Below are positions 1,553 to 47,459 of a stretch of 53,171 nucleotides of DNA, one piece after another. The position numbers and the translations under genes are program-made. Under the pieces are notes generated by a model. It did no database searches and was not told where the DNA came from. It saw nothing but the letters and a program-made list of their open reading frames with translations. Numbering within the stretch: position 1 is the stretch's first letter; every line of letters begins with the position of its first letter. The DNA comes from a virus (taxonomy: Duplodnaviria; Heunggongvirae; Uroviricota; Caudoviricetes). Where the stretch lies: the IMG/VR virus record IMGVR_UViG_2721755711_000003, positions 1 to 53,171 of that record. One strand, written 5' to 3'.

Positions 1553-1741
1553 TCACGAGGACTGAAGTTTCTCGCAATTAAAATTTATCAGTTTTACTTT
1601 CTGCTCTCTGGAAACGCCTGCTTCTTTTTTACCTGAGAGCATTTTTTCGCATTCTGATTTCGTTAGTTTAGATTTTGAATATCTTGTCCAGTTAGTAGGA
1701 GTGCCACCTTCCTTTTCAATAGTGGCGGTAATTTTATACAT
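1553..1741 (-). CDS. small hypothetical protein (YdaC-like position)
   Basis: Internal ATG at 1741 preceded by GGAGG; the longer 86-aa ORF overlaps lar by 80 nt, so the short form (62 aa) is preferred. Confidence 0.4.
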   Translation of the reverse strand: MYKITATIEKEGGTPTNWTRYSKSKLTKSECEKMLSGKKEAGVSREQKVKLINFNCEKLQSS

Positions 1742-8032: not shown

Positions 8033-8494
8033 CTACTGGTTACGTTTCTTTAGTGCCAGCATGTTCTCGAAGGCTTCCTCGTAGAGCTTGTTTAGTCCAC
8101 GTAGCTGGTTAAGGAGTTTGGCTTTTTCTGACGCAGGTAGAATCTCGAAGAGGTTAAGCAACTCTGCCTGTTCTTCATTGACCAGCCTCCATCCTTTGCC
8201 TGAAAAGCTATCATCATAAGTATCTGATGATCTTACATAATTCATTAAGTCTTTAAGGTCTTCTCGAATGTCCTCTGGTTTTACCTTTAACAGAGCCGCA
8301 AATTTTAGCGCAGCATCGGTATTTACCGGTATCTTGCCGTTCAGATACTGGCTAACGGTGCCTTGAGATTCGAATCCCAACAACTCAGCCGCCAGCTCTT
8401 GAGTCAGCTTCAGCTCTTTTTTTCTTGCATTCCATGCGGCTTTTAAATTCTTGCTCGCTTCTGGAGTTGCAATCACTTCGCGTGTTTTTTTCAT
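8033..8494 (-). CDS. racR: prophage repressor, RacR-like (HTH)
   Basis: 153-aa ORF with an N-terminal HTH-like segment (LTQELAAELLGFESQGTVSQYLNGK); divergent from the Cro-like ydaS. Confidence 0.65.
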   Translation of the reverse strand: MKKTREVIATPEASKNLKAAWNARKKELKLTQELAAELLGFESQGTVSQYLNGKIPVNTDAALKFAALLKVKPEDIREDLKDLMNYVRSSDTYDDSFSGKGWRLVNEEQAELLNLFEILPASEKAKLLNQLRGLNKLYEEAFENMLALKKRNQ

Positions 8495-8601: not shown

Positions 8602-8877
8602 ATGAACTTAAGAGACTATTTAAAAGAGAAACATATCACCCAGCTACAGTTTGGGAAGCTAACGGGTTTATCTCAGGTGCACGTAAGTCGAGTGCTGGGG
8701 GGCTATGAAAGATTCAGCCCTGAAAAAGCATTACGTGTTGCTGAAGTAACGAATTTCGAGGTTACACCTCATGAACTCCGGCCTGATATCTACCCGAATC
8801 CAACCGACGGTTTACCTGTTGGATGTAAGGCTAACACACAAAATACACAGGAGTTGATTCATGAAAATCAGGCATGA
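8602..8877 (+). CDS. ydaS: Cro-like HTH regulator, YdaS-like
   Basis: ATG at 8602 with GAAGG upstream (the track ORF begins at a TTG); HTH-like segment ITQLQFGKLTGLSQVHVSRVL. Confidence 0.55.
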   Translation: MNLRDYLKEKHITQLQFGKLTGLSQVHVSRVLGGYERFSPEKALRVAEVTNFEVTPHELRPDIYPNPTDGLPVGCKANTQNTQELIHENQA

Positions 8878-13149: not shown

Positions 13150-14040
13150 TCAGGCTGCCAGATCATCGTTTCCGATGGAAGCATAATAAGCTTTTTCTGC
13201 TTCTGCCGGTGGGATATGGCCCAGCCTTTCCAGCAATCGTCGATTGTTATACCAGTCCACCCACGTGAGTGTGGACAGCTCCACTTCTGTCCGGTTTTTC
13301 CAGCGCTTACGGTGTATTACCTCCGCTTTGTAAAGGCCATTGATGCTCTCCGCCATCGCGTTGTCATACGAGTCACCAGTACTCCCTGTTGATGCCAGTA
13401 AGCCGGCTTCCTTAAGCCGCTGCGTGTAGGCCAGCGATACATACTGAGAACCTTTATCACTGTGGTGGATTGTGCCGGACGGCCGACGGGCCCACAACGC
13501 CTGCTCCAGTGCATCCAGCACGAATGCCGTTTCCATGGATGATGAGACCCGCCATCCCACGATGTATCCGGCGAACACATCAATGATGAACGCCACATAA
13601 ACGAAGCCCTGCCATGTGTTTACCCAGGTAAAATCAGCCACCCACAACTGGTCAGGACGTTCTGCCACGAACTGACGGTTTACGCGGTCGCATGCGGCAA
13701 CGGCTTTCCGGCTGACGGTAGTGCGGACCTTTTTACCCCGGAGAACACCGGCAAGTCCCATAACCGCCATGAGACGTGCCACAGTGCATCTGGCCACTCT
13801 GATACCTTCCCGTAACAACTGACGCCAGACTTTACGCACACCGTATACCTGGTGATTTTCATCGTATACGCGCTGTATCTCTTTCTTCAGCCAGTCATCG
13901 CGCTGCGCACGGGCACTGCGTTTATCAGGATGATGTCGCTGTTGCTGACAGTGGTAATACGTTGACGGGGCAATATGCAGTTCGCTGCATACCGGTCCGA
14001 CCCCGTACTGCTCACGCAGCTTATCCAGCAGTGGCATCAT
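13150..14040 (-). CDS. IS3-family transposase OrfB (integrase core)
   Basis: 296-aa ORF with a DDE-type transposase core, overlapping orfA in the arrangement expected for a -1 frameshift fusion. Confidence 0.85.
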
Positions 14041-14363
14041 TTTTTCCAGAGGCGGTCGAACTCCGCCTTCGCAAAATAAGCGGAAGCCTGGCGAAGGATA
14101 TCGTTACTGCGGCGCAGTTCACGATTTTCACGTTCCAGCTCTTTCAGACGCTGACGTTCAGCGGTGGTGAGCCCACCATCACCGCCCCCGGTATCCCGCT
14201 CATGCTGGCGAACCCAGACACGCAGAGTCTCCGGCGTACAGCCAATTTTTGGGGCAATGGAACAAATTGCCGCCCACTGTGAATCATACTCATCCTGACT
14301 TTCCAGAACCATACGAATCGCTCGCTGACGGACTTCGGGGGAAAAACGAGTATTTTTAGTCAT
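14037..14363 (-). CDS. IS3-family transposase OrfA (HTH)
   Basis: 108-aa ORF with HTH and leucine-zipper-like C-terminus, starting just inside the IS629 right inverted repeat. Confidence 0.8.
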
Positions 14364-21703: not shown

Positions 21704-21779
<76 letters not shown>

Positions 21780-21782
21780 TAT

Positions 21783-21854
<72 letters not shown>

Positions 21855-22156
21855 CTCTTGTAAAACAAACGAGGCATAGCTTTATCAGCACTGGCGAATT
21901 TTCGCGGAGAACAGCTTTGTAGGTACTATTGTTTTTCTTCATGCTGTAATATCTGAACGGTTACAGTTTCAGTGCTGCTTTTTTTGTATTACATAATGGT
22001 ATGTGATTATTACTTGTAAACGTCGTTAGCAGAATGAGTCGTTACCTGTTCCATGCGCACACGTACAGTAAGCCAGGGTGGCTTTGTAGGTTGACGACTC
22101 ATTCTGGTGGCGACCATATATAAATATAATTCTATTACTACACGATGAATGCTCTG

Positions 22157-43258: not shown

Positions 43259-43971
43259 TGTCAAACGCTCAAAAAATACCGTTTCTCCGAACGCTGTCGG
43301 AGATGATGACCAGTTCTGGTAACCAGCAAGCCGAGCTTAAAGGCCGTGAATTGCCCTGCCATGTTGTCGATGTCAGCGGGCAGATAGTGACAGTTCAGTT
43401 TGATATGCTCCCCGAGGGGATCAACTTTCCGCAGATAACAATCCCTGTCGCCACATTCCCGTATATCCGTTACCCGATACAGCCGGGCGATCGAGGAGTA
43501 ACAATTGCCGCTGATGTATCCCTGCGCGGTGTGTCCGGGTTGGGAACTGGTATGGCGACGCTCTCTTACTCGATGTCGCTCACTCCCCTGTTTTTCGTGC
43601 CACTGGCAAACAAGGACTGGTCCGACGAAGATCCGCAAAAAATCGTTTTGTACGGTCCGGATGGCGCGATCCTCAAAACAGAGGACGGCAGTAGCTCGGT
43701 AACGGTGGCTCCGGAAGAAATCAGGCAAAAGTCGAAAGCTGTTTACCTTGAGGCCGAAGATATTTTCCTGAACGGGAAAATTCACCTCAACGGACCGATC
43801 GTCCAGGACAAAGCCCAGATGAAGGATACAACCGCTTCGCTGATTGGCCCTCTTAAGGTCGAGAAAGATGCAGTTATCAACGGCGTGAGCGCCAGCGGCC
43901 ACAGCCACGATGTGACTGGCGTTCAAAGCGGCGGCAGCACGATCACGTCGAAGCAACCAAATCCGGGTTAA
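43258..43971 (+). CDS. baseplate spike protein (gpV-like)
   Basis: 237 aa with Gly/Ser-rich C-terminal region. Confidence 0.45.
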   Translation: MSNAQKIPFLRTLSEMMTSSGNQQAELKGRELPCHVVDVSGQIVTVQFDMLPEGINFPQITIPVATFPYIRYPIQPGDRGVTIAADVSLRGVSGLGTGMATLSYSMSLTPLFFVPLANKDWSDEDPQKIVLYGPDGAILKTEDGSSSVTVAPEEIRQKSKAVYLEAEDIFLNGKIHLNGPIVQDKAQMKDTTASLIGPLKVEKDAVINGVSASGHSHDVTGVQSGGSTITSKQPNPG

Positions 43972-44009
43972 CCGGTTAATTTCACTTTAAATTCTATCCA
44001 TAAAGCGAA

Positions 44010-44042
44010 AGCCCCGACTGGGCAAACAGTCGGGGCTTTTTG
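44010..44042 (+). terminator. rho-independent terminator
   Basis: AGCCCCGACTG / CAGTCGGGGCT stem, GGCAAA loop, then TTTTT. Confidence 0.65.
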
Positions 44043-44073
44043 TTTCTGACCTTGAATAAGGCAAGGAGAAGTC

Positions 44074-44211
44074 GTGTTTGATTTTAGCAAACTGATTCGG
44101 GAGATTCGAGTTATGGCTGAAAAATTATCCACCTGGAAGTTTTTGCTTATTTGGTTGGTCTTTCTGATTCTTGCGTCTGGTTATTTTGTTGGTCAGATCC
44201 GATGGTGGTGA
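44074..44211 (+). CDS. small membrane protein
   Basis: GTG 44074 preceded by AAGGAGAAG (in-frame ATG at 44113); hydrophobic WKFLLIWLVFLILASGYFVG segment. Confidence 0.3.
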   Translation: MFDFSKLIREIRVMAEKLSTWKFLLIWLVFLILASGYFVGQIRWW

Positions 44212-44218
44212 GGGCGCG

Positions 44219-44566
44219 ATGAGAACATGGGGCCGCGTCAACGACGCGAACGGCAACAAAAAATGGGTTGCAGTAGAATCTGACACCAACGGTGATTTCT
44301 CCTACGGCTGGCTGACGACGCTCATTCAGACGTTAAAGCTGGGGTTGGGGGAGTCGCCGTTTTACGCGAATTACGGCATTCCAGCGCAGCAGTGCATCGT
44401 GCAGCAGATTTACCCGGACTACTATGTGAACATGGTTCAGCAACAGTATGCCGGGTATTTTGCATCGCTGGCAATTTCAAAAGTAGATGGGGCAGAGAAC
44501 CCCACCTATAACATCGATGTTGTGTTTTTTAACGGAACCAGTTACCGGACGCAGGTTCCGGTTTGA
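44219..44566 (+). CDS. hypothetical protein
   Basis: ATG 44219 (MRTWGRVNDANGNKKW...); 115 aa. Confidence 0.4.
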   Translation: MRTWGRVNDANGNKKWVAVESDTNGDFSYGWLTTLIQTLKLGLGESPFYANYGIPAQQCIVQQIYPDYYVNMVQQQYAGYFASLAISKVDGAENPTYNIDVVFFNGTSYRTQVPV

Positions 44567-45111
44567 GGCAAGTTTTCGGGCATCAATTGGGCCAGTGGCG
44601 TGTTAAGAAGTTCATCGCGTGGCATGACAATCCATCCACTTTTGCGTAGTAAGTGAATTGCCCATTCTGTGGTGATAACTGAGCCTGATTTGTGGTGCTC
44701 AATGTGGGTAACCGAGCCGTTTCTGACGCGCATGATGATGTCAACATTCAGAGGGGATTGTGTGCTGGTGGTATCTTCGCGCAGCTTCTTCTCGCACTCG
44801 ATGAAGTATCGGCGGATCTGGCGTCCTTTTTCGTTGCGCTCGACCATTGCCAGTTCTTTGGCGGTGTCTAGGGTGAGGTGGTAGTCCTTGCGGTTATGTC
44901 CTCCTCTGCCTCCTAACGATTGCTTTCCTGTTTTGGAAAGCAAAATGTAATCTTGATTTTCTGTAAATCCGTATTCTGCGATGCGGGATGTAATCCAGGC
45001 TGCGAAAACCTTACCTACACCAAGAAAAGCGTGCAGATCACGAGCATTACAGAGTAGGGCGGTTTCGTTTGAGATAGTTCCGTTGAAAACGGGGATTAAT
45101 TGTATTGTCAT
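44542..45111 (-). CDS. antirepressor-like protein (AntA-type N-terminal domain)
   Basis: 189 aa on the opposite strand inside the baseplate cluster; N-terminal region LLCNARDLHAFLGVGKVFAAWITSRIAEYGF typical of antirepressor domains. Confidence 0.55.
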   Translation of the reverse strand: MTIQLIPVFNGTISNETALLCNARDLHAFLGVGKVFAAWITSRIAEYGFTENQDYILLSKTGKQSLGGRGGHNRKDYHLTLDTAKELAMVERNEKGRQIRRYFIECEKKLREDTTSTQSPLNVDIIMRVRNGSVTHIEHHKSGSVITTEWAIHLLRKSGWIVMPRDELLNTPLAQLMPENLPQTGTCVR

Positions 45112-45183
45112 AACGACCTCACTGATTTTTTCGAATTTCCACTATCGGAGTGGAGCCGGGAGGTTCGAAACGGCTCAGTGAGG
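45112..45183 (-). promoter_or_regulatory. structured 5' leader of the antirepressor gene
   Basis: Perfect 9-bp inverted repeat (CCTCACTGA at 45117-45125, TCAGTGAGG at 45175-45183); one arm contains the GAGG ribosome-binding site; two internal hairpins. Confidence 0.4.
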
Positions 45184-45443
45184 CCGCGGACTTATTCCCC
45201 TTTCGGGTGTTGTATTCGTCGCCCTCCCGACATTGTTCGGGGATGTGACCGCACATTGTGCCATCACTAAATAGCAGGCATAAAAAATCCAACACTAACG
45301 GGGTTGGTTGTGACCGCACTGAGAAGAGGTTTCGACGCCTCATGCGCTTAATCATACTCAACTGGGCGCGGTTGTAAAGTATGAACTTGAACGGACATTA
45401 AGAATGGGTAAAATTTAATCTCCTGTTTTTAAGGAGATTACGG

Positions 45444-46190
45444 ATGATTAAGTTTAAATTATTTGTAGTGTTTGCTTTTTTATTACAAATCGGAACTGCG
45501 AATGCGGTATCTTTTGATTGCTCGAAAGCTAAATCATATTCTGAAAAGTTAATTTGCAGCAACAGTGAATTATCTGAACTTGATGATAAATTAAATTCTT
45601 TATATCAAAAAGTAAAGTTAGAGAGCGCTGATAAGAAAGCTTTTAGAAAAATTGTTTCAGACTTGTGGAATGAAAGAGAGAAGTGCAAAACAGAATCATG
45701 TGTTCGACAATGGTATTCTAATGCATTCAGGGAATATTCATCTTTAAATGAAATTAATGAGAACATAATCAATGAATCAAAGAATTACGCTGAATGGTAT
45801 ATTGATGGTGCACTGATAATATTACCTCCACTGGAAGGTGTTAGTAAAAATAGATTCCTGATGTATGGCGATGATGGGACAATAGCTATTTTTATTGCTT
45901 CAAAATCTAAAGGCAATGGATTTTGCGATAATTCAGTGCAAATTGATGGGCCATTAGAGTATCCACCAATTTTGATTAATGGTGAATATTATAAAACTTA
46001 TAAATCATGCTTGTATGGAAATGGTTTTATAGTACCAAAAACTGAAATTGGTAAAGCGGTTCTGAAAGAATTGGTTATGAAAATGAAGCCTATAAAAATT
46101 TCTTTTGGAGACGGCGATGAATTTAACTATCCTCCATCAAATGTAAAAAGAATGCTTGAGAGGGTGGAAAAAATGAAACAGGCAAAATAA
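45444..46190 (+). CDS. secreted protein with LprI-like (DUF1311-like) N-terminal domain
   Basis: 248 aa; signal peptide MIKFKLFVVFAFLLQIGTANA; Cys-containing N-terminal region (FDCSKAKSYSEKLICSN...LNSLYQ); clearly lower GC than flanking tail genes; own terminator. Confidence 0.55.
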   Translation: MIKFKLFVVFAFLLQIGTANAVSFDCSKAKSYSEKLICSNSELSELDDKLNSLYQKVKLESADKKAFRKIVSDLWNEREKCKTESCVRQWYSNAFREYSSLNEINENIINESKNYAEWYIDGALIILPPLEGVSKNRFLMYGDDGTIAIFIASKSKGNGFCDNSVQIDGPLEYPPILINGEYYKTYKSCLYGNGFIVPKTEIGKAVLKELVMKMKPIKISFGDGDEFNYPPSNVKRMLERVEKMKQAK

Positions 46191-46198
46191 GTTAACTT

Positions 46199-46221
46199 AA
46201 AACCGCTTCGGCGGTTTTTTT
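46199..46221 (+). terminator. rho-independent terminator
   Basis: AACCGC / GCGGTT stem, TTCG loop, then a T7 run. Confidence 0.65.
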
Positions 46222-46232
46222 ATGGGGTAGAT

Positions 46233-47459
46233 ATGTCTGAAATACCAATTACTATGACCAGTGCGGGTGCGCAGCCTACGCCACCCAATGATTTGCTCGC
46301 AAATCTTATCACCAGAGTTGCTGAAAAAGTACCTGGATATACAGCCAACCTTCCGGCAGGACTTATTACAGACCTTGCCAGCACGGCAGTAGGGGCGCTG
46401 GCATTAATAGACCAGGCGCGGGTTGATCTTATTAACTCCGTAAGCCCATACGGCGCGAATATTCCGTTACTGATGCAACTCGGAAACATATATGGAGCAC
46501 AGAAGGGATTAAGTACAAATACGGCGGTATACGTGGTGTTTGAAGCGTTGCCGGGGTTTGGTATCCCTAAAGGATTTGTGGTTGGAGACGGTAACTACCA
46601 GTATGCGGTTTCCCGCGATACTGTGGTACCGGAAAGCGGGCAGACTGAGCCAGTTTACTGTGTGGCCACAACGTCAGGCTCATGGGCTGTACCGGAAGGG
46701 ACCGTGACGCAGGTTATTACATCAGTACCCAAAGACCAGCCTGTAAAATGCACGAACCTTACCGCAGGGATGCCAGGTCAGGAGGAGCAGACGTGGGCAT
46801 CTTACCGCGCCGAAGTCATGGAGTCTGGCATGTTTGGTGTGCAGGGAACACCGGATTGCTTTAAAGCGATGCTCAAATCAGTAAGCGGTGTGCGCGAAAA
46901 CCTGATTTCTTTCCGGCAGTCGTCGCTGGGGAAATGGGTTGCGGTTGTTGGTGGCGGTGATCCGTATGATGTGGCTTATGCGATTTACAAATCTGTACCG
47001 GACATTTCGAAACTGACCAACGATGTTAGCAATCCATCCGGTGCGGCAGTGGAAAAACGCACGGTTTCAATAACCGTTTCGCCGGACGTTTATCAGGTAC
47101 CGTTCGTTATCCCGTCATCACAAAACGTCATGGTGCTAATCACCTGGAACACGGTGTCTGATGATTATGTTGATCCGGCGGGTATTGCTATGGCTGTGCA
47201 GCAAAACGTTGCTGATTACATCAATTCAATTGAAGTCGGACACCCGATAAATCTTCTGCGTATCCAGGATATTTTTACCAGTTCCGTCAGGTTGCTGGTT
47301 GATGCGACGTTGATCTCAACAATCAGTGTGAGCATTGGTATTAACGGCCATATTGTTCTTCCGGCGAAAGACACAAGCCTGGTTTATGGCGATACCTATT
47401 CCTATTTTTCAACGGTGGCATCACAGGTTCAGGTCAACAAGTATGCAATATCTGACTGA
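46233..47459 (+). CDS. baseplate protein (gpJ-like)
   Basis: 408 aa; resumes the tail module after the moron island. Confidence 0.45.
   Translation: MSEIPITMTSAGAQPTPPNDLLANLITRVAEKVPGYTANLPAGLITDLASTAVGALALIDQARVDLINSVSPYGANIPLLMQLGNIYGAQKGLSTNTAVYVVFEALPGFGIPKGFVVGDGNYQYAVSRDTVVPESGQTEPVYCVATTSGSWAVPEGTVTQVITSVPKDQPVKCTNLTAGMPGQEEQTWASYRAEVMESGMFGVQGTPDCFKAMLKSVSGVRENLISFRQSSLGKWVAVVGGGDPYDVAYAIYKSVPDISKLTNDVSNPSGAAVEKRTVSITVSPDVYQVPFVIPSSQNVMVLITWNTVSDDYVDPAGIAMAVQQNVADYINSIEVGHPINLLRIQDIFTSSVRLLVDATLISTISVSIGINGHIVLPAKDTSLVYGDTYSYFSTVASQVQVNKYAISD

Follow-up and report, generated by a model that had tools for sequence, protein, structure and literature searches.

The leader of the antirepressor gene ant is probably an immunity RNA module of the kind represented by c4 of phage P1, by phage N15 and by IsrK of Gifsy-1, assembled around an RNA of the sRNA-Xcc1 family. 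It lies on the minus strand of the window, by which we mean the whole stretch of viral DNA that was analysed (53,171 nt). As the loop of this RNA is complementary to the ribosome-binding site (RBS) of ant itself, sRNA-Xcc1 probably works like P1 c4, and the best reading of the module is one that follows the same logic as C4 antisense immunity on a different RNA scaffold. Control of an antirepressor matters for prophage induction, since these proteins determine whether the prophage remains silent.

The ant locus and its neighbours

The two genes that diverge from the region under study are the following.

44542..45111, minus strand: ant, the regulated gene, encoding a 189-aa antirepressor of the AntA/AntB family (PF08346, E = 1e-25, Pfam)
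45444-46190, plus strand: LprI-like gene, divergent from ant, placed in the LprI family by the annotation of an E. coli chromosome that is identical over the corresponding stretch

Protein families at the locus and in its relatives were assigned by Pfam match. Positions 45100-45460 are 100% identical to a prophage region of E. coli TUM9812, whose annotation lists, between baseplate genes, an LprI-family protein and an antirepressor of the antA/AntB type, and close copies of the ant leader are carried by Shiga-toxin-converting phages. In the window, ant and the LprI-family gene are inserted amid baseplate genes (44171-44566 and 46233-47459), and ant shares the 25 nt at its 3' end (44542-44566) with the 3' end of the convergent ORF 44171-44566; in TUM9812 additional genes, a YafO-family toxin gene among them, separate the baseplate genes from ant. 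At about 30-32% G+C, the LprI-family gene differs from its flanks, which have about 50%; it has its own promoter-like site at 45387-45414 and looks like foreign cargo.

A strong G+C-rich hairpin at 44000-44045 (AAAGCCCCGACUG...CAGUCGGGGCUUU), with A- and T-runs on its flanks, has the appearance of a bidirectional terminator. A weak Rfam match to SSRC10 at this place reflects terminator resemblance only, and the same is true of a weak match to sar (44004-44070), for which reason antisense control of the P22 sar type was rejected. Elsewhere in the window, Rfam identifies RalA, the antitoxin sRNA of RalR and a type I toxin-antitoxin RNA known from the Rac prophage (1557-1735, plus strand, 225 bits), an ALIL pseudoknot (13966-14082, minus strand, 121 bits), and two adjacent genes for tRNA-Thr(TGT) and tRNA-Gly(TCC) (21704-21855, plus strand). 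ALIL is the frameshift element of IS3-family transposases, and would suggest an insertion sequence within the prophage.

An sRNA-Xcc1 RNA in the ant leader

The elements of the leader are listed below in the direction of ant transcription; paired fractions given for 16 leaders refer to an alignment of 16 close enteric leaders.

45351..45378, minus strand: promoter-like site, -35 TTTACA (45378..45373), 16-nt spacer, -10 TATGAT (45356..45351), agreeing with consensus at 10/12 positions
45326..45341, minus strand: b1 hairpin, GAGG-CGUCGAAA-CCUC, displaying the b1 box UCGAAA (45335..45330), which is complementary to b'
45314..45322, minus strand: a1, upstream target box UCAGUGCGG, an 8/9 direct-repeat copy of a2, complementary to the a' loop
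45306..45319, minus strand: 14-mer, copy 1, as RNA GUGCGGUCACAACC, made of the a1 3' end, a conserved GCGGUCA flank and the 2 nt that begin the stem of hairpin T
45282..45307, minus strand: hairpin T, terminator-like, CCAACCC (45307..45301) / GUGUUGG (45295..45289), then A and UUUUUU (45287..45282)
45245..45267, minus strand: hairpin P0, GUGAUGGCAC / AAU / GUGCGGUCAC, 13 nt 5' of the sRNA
45241-45254, minus strand: 14-mer, copy 2, made of the P0 3' arm and 4 nt
45147..45231, minus strand: sRNA-Xcc1 family RNA (RF02221), 85 nt, found with the Rfam covariance model
45175..45183, minus strand: a', antisense box CCUCACUGA in the hairpin-2 loop, identical to the upstream arm of the stem proposed in the preliminary description
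45164..45170, minus strand: b', antisense box UUUCGAA in the junction from hairpin 2 to the P1 3' arm
45139..45153, minus strand: hairpin P3, CCACU-CCGAU-AGUGG, between the sRNA and the downstream target, 92% paired in 16 leaders
45129..45135, minus strand: b2, downstream target box UUCGAAA, pairing with b'
45117..45125, minus strand: a2, downstream target box UCAGUGAGG, containing the SD GAGG; the pairing reaches 45113

The match to RF02221 covers model positions 1-87 of 87 with 72.4 bits, compared with a gathering score of 53 (E = 1.2e-12), and is also recovered by a gathering scan of the whole window with Rfam. The fold is that of the family, with a closing stem around two hairpins and the conserved AAUACAAnACCCGnAAGGGGAA core in the first: the closing stem P1 has 9 bp (GUCGGGAGG, 45231..45223, with CCUCCCGGC, 45163..45155), hairpin 1 (45220..45189) is long and carries the conserved core AAUACAACACCCGAAAGGGGAAU, and hairpin 2 occupies 45187..45170. 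The isolated RNA refolds into this structure, P1 and hairpin 2 included, and the 16 leaders show 100% pairing in every one of its helices, namely P1, the two of hairpin 1 and that of hairpin 2. The AAUACAAnACCCGnAAGGGGAA core is near-invariant and conserved across many phyla, from Proteobacteria to Bacteroidota, Acidobacteriota and Planctomycetota.

RNAs of the C4 type have a 5' end generated by RNase P, with NCCA next to a tRNA-like acceptor stem. Directly after P1 stands UCCA, which in relatives is ACCA, GCCC or ACCC, and the same bases also form the 5' arm of P3. The 3' end of the sRNA lies 36 nt ahead of the AUG of ant, and in the window neither a U-run nor a terminator follows it.

The RBS-sequestering stem is a box/target pair

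The preliminary description had proposed that the ant mRNA leader can form a 9-bp long-range stem which buries the RBS, a structure that implied translational control. The stem is real, 45117-45125 (plus strand, CCTCACTGA) being the exact reverse complement of 45175-45183 (plus strand, TCAGTGAGG); in the minus-strand RNA these become a downstream arm UCAGUGAGG and an upstream arm CCUCACUGA, and the former does hold the SD GAGG (45120..45117), 5 nt ahead of the AUG at 45111. The folding of 45105-45190 on the minus strand, which had been suggested as a check, places the stem both in the minimum free energy (MFE) structure and in the centroid, and lengthens it to 13 bp with two G-U pairs. This fold has an energy of -35.9 kcal/mol (z = -5.5), equalled by 0/200 shuffles, and the stem encloses a second helix, UUUCGAA/UUCGAAA, together with one hairpin, CCACU..AGUGG. 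The stem is still part of the MFE structure when the fold is extended to a 251-nt leader; the sequestered state of the leader (-49.1 kcal/mol) lies 7 kcal/mol below the Rfam fold in which the RBS is free (-42.1 kcal/mol).

The stem is one of two pairs of antisense box and target, namely a'/a2 (9-13 bp, SD included) and b'/b2 (7 bp). What had been taken for a leader stem is the loop of a small RNA (a') pairing with the RBS (a2), and the inner helix is the junction b' paired with b2. The earlier interpretation was right about the stem and about translational control, and missed the sRNA identity of the upstream arm, the second box pair and the second copy of the target. Post-transcriptional control of ant is very likely, because the RBS-burying fold is the preferred one and is kept by compensatory changes across many phages.

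Comparative tests of the box/target pairing

The pairing was examined in a sample of 120 viral and 120 bacterial loci bearing the hairpin-1 core, the tested sets being 81 non-redundant viral loci and 84 loci from bacterial genomes (about 160 in total). Because a whole-family MAFFT alignment misaligned the variable loops and was set aside, column counts were confined to the 16 close enteric leaders, and the wide locus set was evaluated by alignment-free comparison of cognate with non-cognate pairs.

Throughout the viral and bacterial loci, the a' loop covaries with the SD region (a2) of the next gene, and b' with b2. In the 81 viral loci, where an ORF with an SD begins 70-125 nt past the core and a2 takes 70 distinct sequences, the cognate duplex of loop and RBS has a mean energy of -16.9 kcal/mol, compared with -10.3 for non-cognate pairs, and the longest a'/a2 complementary run is 8.0 nt in cognate pairs vs 5.9 nt, a mean reached in 0/10000 permutations; the median location of the run is -17 to -9 relative to the start codon. 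The same holds for the b'/b2 run of the viral loci (6.8 nt vs 5.7; 0/10000 permutations) and for the a'/a2 run of the 84 bacterial loci (7.3 nt vs 5.95; 0/10000 permutations). Moreover, the upstream site matches the a'b' boxes of its own locus, with a duplex energy in 79 viral loci of -29.5 kcal/mol for cognate and -21.7 for non-cognate pairs. In one relative (L012) the a'/b' boxes read UCUCGUUGA.

At the level of single columns, 7/20 pairs of a'b':a2b2 are altered on both sides among the 16 leaders, and 81% of the cells are paired vs 39-61% when the register is slid; the covariation score was reached by 0/500 shuffles. For a1b1:a'b' the corresponding values are 7/12 pairs and 93% of cells (0/500 shuffles), to which the a1/a' helix contributes both-side changes at 5/6 pairs and the b1/b' helix, which is 100% paired, at 2/6. 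Several pairs alternate between G-U and G-C, which fits pairing of a minus-strand RNA rather than DNA sites.

A subgroup from Xanthomonadaceae and Rhodanobacter (L133, L143, L195 and others) is without an obvious a'/a2 match and may use another target. In loci of Pseudomonas (L126, L155, L182, L186 and others) the RNA is followed by short ORFs of <50 aa (MPDYPTF...) whose SD is still matched by the loop.

The upstream half of the leader

The promoter-like site listed above has counterparts in the aligned enteric homologs, which show TTGAC / TATnnT at the same position; transcription is predicted from these motifs to start near 45344, giving ant a leader of 233 nt. Within 43482 to 46621 no LexA box (CTGT-N8-ACAG) was found with up to 1 mismatch, and LexA control of the type described for the antirepressors of Gifsy and 186 (Tum) was ruled out on the absence of a box near the promoter. 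The scan yielded no second promoter between hairpin T and the sRNA, comparable to P51b of P1, and by eye only a poor TGnTATTTA could be recognized there.

Hairpin T is a candidate terminator, judged by its position and shape. It is weak and almost invariant in the 16 leaders, with one mismatched pair and 87% of the cells paired, and the terminator scan did not report it; in other clades stronger terminators stand at this position, and in N15 an annotated one. The 3' arm of hairpin T with its tail (GUGUUGGAUU, 45286-45295) is 9/10 complementary to the sRNA core AAUACAACAC (45207-45216), a match that could be an antitermination contact, or chance. Hairpin P0, which follows, has 4/10 pairs altered on both sides in the 16 leaders, for instance GUGGUUGCA/UGCAACCAC in L018.

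The preliminary description had also pointed to a duplicated 14-bp motif as a pair of candidate operator sites shared by ant and the divergent LprI-like gene. The duplication itself holds, at 45241-45254 and 45306-45319, with a 13/14 match; the motif has only these two occurrences in the 53-kb window, where about 0.03 would be expected, and two copies were found in 0/100 shuffles. A similar GCGGNCA.A.CC string is present at both places in most relatives. Both copies fall inside the predicted transcript, since both are downstream of the sole good promoter match on the ant strand. The operator role assigned to them is not supported and is taken up with the other alternatives below.

Downstream genes and distribution of sRNA-Xcc1 units

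Most of the downstream genes with a Pfam match in the 81 viral loci have antirepressor-type domains: P22_AR_C (16), Bro-N (12), KilA-N (12), AntA (8), ORF6N (8), P22_AR_N (7) and Rha (7), in overlapping counts in which two-domain proteins enter twice. In about a dozen viral loci the downstream ORFs, of 79-85 aa, had no Pfam match. The same families are found downstream in bacterial genomes, with the addition of SymE toxins. The leader elements travel with the sRNA in other phages, where the upstream genes are unrelated, and some copies from phages and Haemophilus (L096, L116, L139) have their own terminator after the RNA and no adjacent target.

On one viral contig (L072, 7577-9493), units that repeat about every 380 nt form a tandem array of an sRNA-Xcc1, an isrK, a C4 and four more sRNA-Xcc1, so arranged that C4, isrK and sRNA-Xcc1 occupy equivalent positions. 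The array resembles a five-copy island reported in Xylella. C4, isrK and sRNA-Xcc1 are neighbours in equivalent positions in Xylella as well (PMC12189769). Both units of the array that were analysed (8261-8347 and 8643-8728) are followed by 127-aa ORFs with no Pfam match. Shigella phage POCJ13 (L124, 311-395 and 846-931) has two sRNA-Xcc1 units, each directly 5' of an annotated antirepressor gene. In Vibrio phage VPBES (L125, 1618-1706), tail genes surround a unit that is accompanied by a small ORF and a gene for a DNA-binding protein, a placement like that in the window.

Proposed mechanism and alternative explanations

According to the mechanism that we propose, transcription from the promoter-like site at 45351-45378 would first produce a copy of the target, with b1 in a hairpin and then a1, followed by the weak terminator-like hairpin. 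A read-through transcript would contain P0, the 85-nt sRNA, P3, the second target copy (b2, and a2 over the SD) and ant. Pairing of a' and b' with b2-a2 would occlude the RBS, so that Ant would not be translated. The sRNA may be released or accumulate, as the cases of c4 and of the 88-nt sRNA-Xcc1 of Xanthomonas suggest, and it may then act in trans on ant mRNAs with the same box, superinfecting relatives included, the variable a'/b' boxes serving as a putative specificity code. Such accumulation and box-specific action in trans would fit the 88-nt species of Xanthomonas, the target-less copies with a terminator and the diversity of the boxes.

For b1-a1 and the terminator, two roles can be envisaged. 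The site may be an sRNA-dependent attenuator; the upstream target site has an attenuator role in N15 and P4. Alternatively, a short terminated transcript may mimic the target and thereby titrate the sRNA, the way IsrK has been shown to do (PMC4825925). Four features of this model are inferences: that the RNA is expressed, that it is processed, that it acts in trans, and what the upstream site does.

The likeliest of the alternatives, in line with the preliminary description, is a purely cis-acting leader, in which the stem in each ant mRNA keeps translation low and no separate or trans-acting RNA exists; we regard it as unlikely. In its favour, the local segment and the full leader both have the sequestered fold as their MFE structure, the window shows no terminator behind the sRNA, and covariation of a' with a2 is equally expected from a helix in cis; in fact, given that this fold is already the MFE in cis, neither trans action nor processing is required for the conservation of a'/a2. 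A simple clamp, however, needs no second target upstream, and here such a target covaries with the same boxes. Furthermore, the upstream arm of the stem belongs to an autonomous and widely conserved RNA fold, found as an 88-nt RNA in Xanthomonas (PMC2996969), copies with their own terminator and no neighbouring target exist (L096, L116, L139), and tandem arrays mix sRNA-Xcc1 with C4 and isrK, all of which count against a leader that acts in cis only.

Quite improbable is a riboswitch-like or protein-responsive switch, in which the anti-SD stem would form unless a ligand or protein, bound at the hairpin-1 core, stabilised the sRNA-Xcc1 fold and thereby exposed the SD. Two mutually exclusive folds that differ by 7 kcal/mol would suit such a device, as would a core (AAUACAAnACCCGnAAGGGGAA) whose conservation across many phyla exceeds what helix maintenance needs; yet this core could equally be a determinant of processing or stability, and variable, target-matched loops with duplicated targets are hallmarks of antisense regulation and not of ligand sensing. 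The downstream genes, moreover, are regulators or toxins and not metabolic genes, and we know of no ligand or protein candidate, which also counts against a switch.

That the 14-mers are DNA operators of a repressor acting on the divergent ant and LprI-like promoters is very improbable: the duplication is well above chance, the motif has a weak GTG-N4-CAC dyad symmetry and copy 2 forms part of an inverted repeat (10+3+10) that can be read as an operator, but both copies are inside the predicted transcript, 25-100 nt past the start predicted for the ant strand and at a distance of 125-200 nt from the LprI-like gene, copy 1 shares sequence with a box that shows covariation with the loop of the sRNA, the inverted repeat of copy 2 keeps its pairing through G-U, which is relevant to RNA only, and the elements accompany the sRNA in phages with unrelated upstream genes.

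Beyond this locus, we lean, by a small degree, to a more general view of sRNA-Xcc1 as a very widespread, programmable antisense regulator of the C4 type, located 5' of antirepressor or toxin genes in mobile elements and provided with a two-box code and an upstream decoy or attenuator, and not as a virulence sRNA of Xanthomonas. We did not find this view stated in the searchable open-access literature.

If the antisense module proposed for ant is correct, a concrete and testable function would be at hand for an Rfam family that has none assigned and whose annotation is solely that of an sRNA from a plant pathogen. The variable boxes would then predict which prophages cross-repress each other's antirepressors, and the combination of a scaffold, two short boxes and a decoy would offer a compact, naturally occurring plan on which orthogonal translational repressors could be built. 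Should the wider view also be true, immunity RNAs would have a second scaffold in sRNA-Xcc1, and a new annotation would be due for thousands of Rfam hits that are now orphans.

Comparison with known systems

In the literature, sRNA-Xcc1 is described as a virulence-linked, trans-acting sRNA controlled by HrpG/HrpX, with predicted chromosomal or plant targets. The title of a 2011 paper by Chen et al. presents it as integron-borne and HrpG/HrpX-controlled. In Xanthomonas campestris it is a discrete RNA of 88 nt, demonstrated by Northern blot and end mapping (PMC2996969), and the RNA of the window is like it in covariance-model family, size and fold. Its position just 5' of the harmful gene symE in integron cassettes of Xanthomonas (10.1101/2025.06.18.660453), and in APSE phages 5' of an ORF6N gene (10.1101/2020.03.17.996009), has been recorded with no mechanism drawn. 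In the open-access literature, no link of sRNA-Xcc1 to c4, to pairing with the RBS of the adjacent gene or to antirepressor control was found.

Among phage antisense RNAs, sar of P22 (immI) resembles the present case in that an antisense RNA blocks translation of the antirepressor at its RBS; it differs in that its transcript comes from the other strand and crosses the start of ant, whereas here the RNA is on the same strand, upstream, and has short boxes. Identity with the 'microRNA-size' RNA 24B_1 of the Stx phage phi24B, proposed to target an antirepressor (PMC4426718), was discarded, the 20-nt sequence of 24B_1 being unlike the leader on visual comparison.

Another parallel is the Gifsy-1 IsrK / STnc1160 / anrP system of Salmonella, which has, as predicted here, a promoter, a short target-like RNA ending at a terminator and a read-through transcript with an RNA and an antirepressor, and in which alternative long-range structures likewise set whether translation occurs (PMC4825925). 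Leader pairing of this kind was proved there by compensatory mutagenesis (PMC4825925). The Gifsy-1 read-through transcript contains a processed, stable RNA (PMC4825925), and in the window processing is a prediction. Another difference is that the short RNA of Gifsy-1 activates translation in trans, through the small upstream orf45 and translational coupling (PMC4825925), whereas no equivalent of orf45 is evident here; the Gifsy-1 RNAs belong, moreover, to the isrK and C4 families.

There is also a correspondence with C4. The features of the C4 type found here are an antirepressor leader on the same strand, two boxes directed against an RBS target and an upstream a1 b1 copy. Citron and Schuster are said to have described, in 1990, the biology of c4 in P1/P7 (immI: c4-icd-ant). 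The window differs from P1/P7 in that ant follows directly, with no icd-like ORF, and RNase P processing and an immunity phenotype, with antirepressor synthesis repressed in trans and heteroimmunity specificity set by the RNA, are c4 traits that are at most predicted here by analogy. In N15 the leader of the ant operon contains, in order, a c4-a1b1 match (also isrK), an annotated terminator, a C4 RNA (78.8 bits), b2 (UUCUCAAC) and then a2 (UACAAGAUAGGA) covering the SD.

Membership of the Rfam families themselves was rejected, as C4 (RF01695, clan CL00128) has no match at E <= 10 in 43900-46400, and isrK (RF01394) and c4-a1b1 (RF03163), both of which match N15, have none at E <= 10 either, 45280-45345 included; the kinship with c4 is accordingly architectural and not a demonstrated homology. 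Hairpin 1 is long here, with a conserved internal loop, and in C4 it is a short UUCG hairpin; the closing stem has 9 bp here and 17 in C4. Within that architecture, c4 of P1/P7 (PMC12197685), C4 of N15 and the RNA described here are all small structured RNAs that belong to an antirepressor operon leader and are encoded on the same strand as the operon, with a closing stem, two hairpins and antisense boxes in the hairpin-2 loop and the junction. In each case the boxes match a downstream target at the RBS and a duplicate target upstream, and their sequences vary among relatives; furthermore, the C4 and sRNA-Xcc1 consensus sequences share a UAUG 5' flank and a CC-rich 3' tail (CACC in the C4 model).
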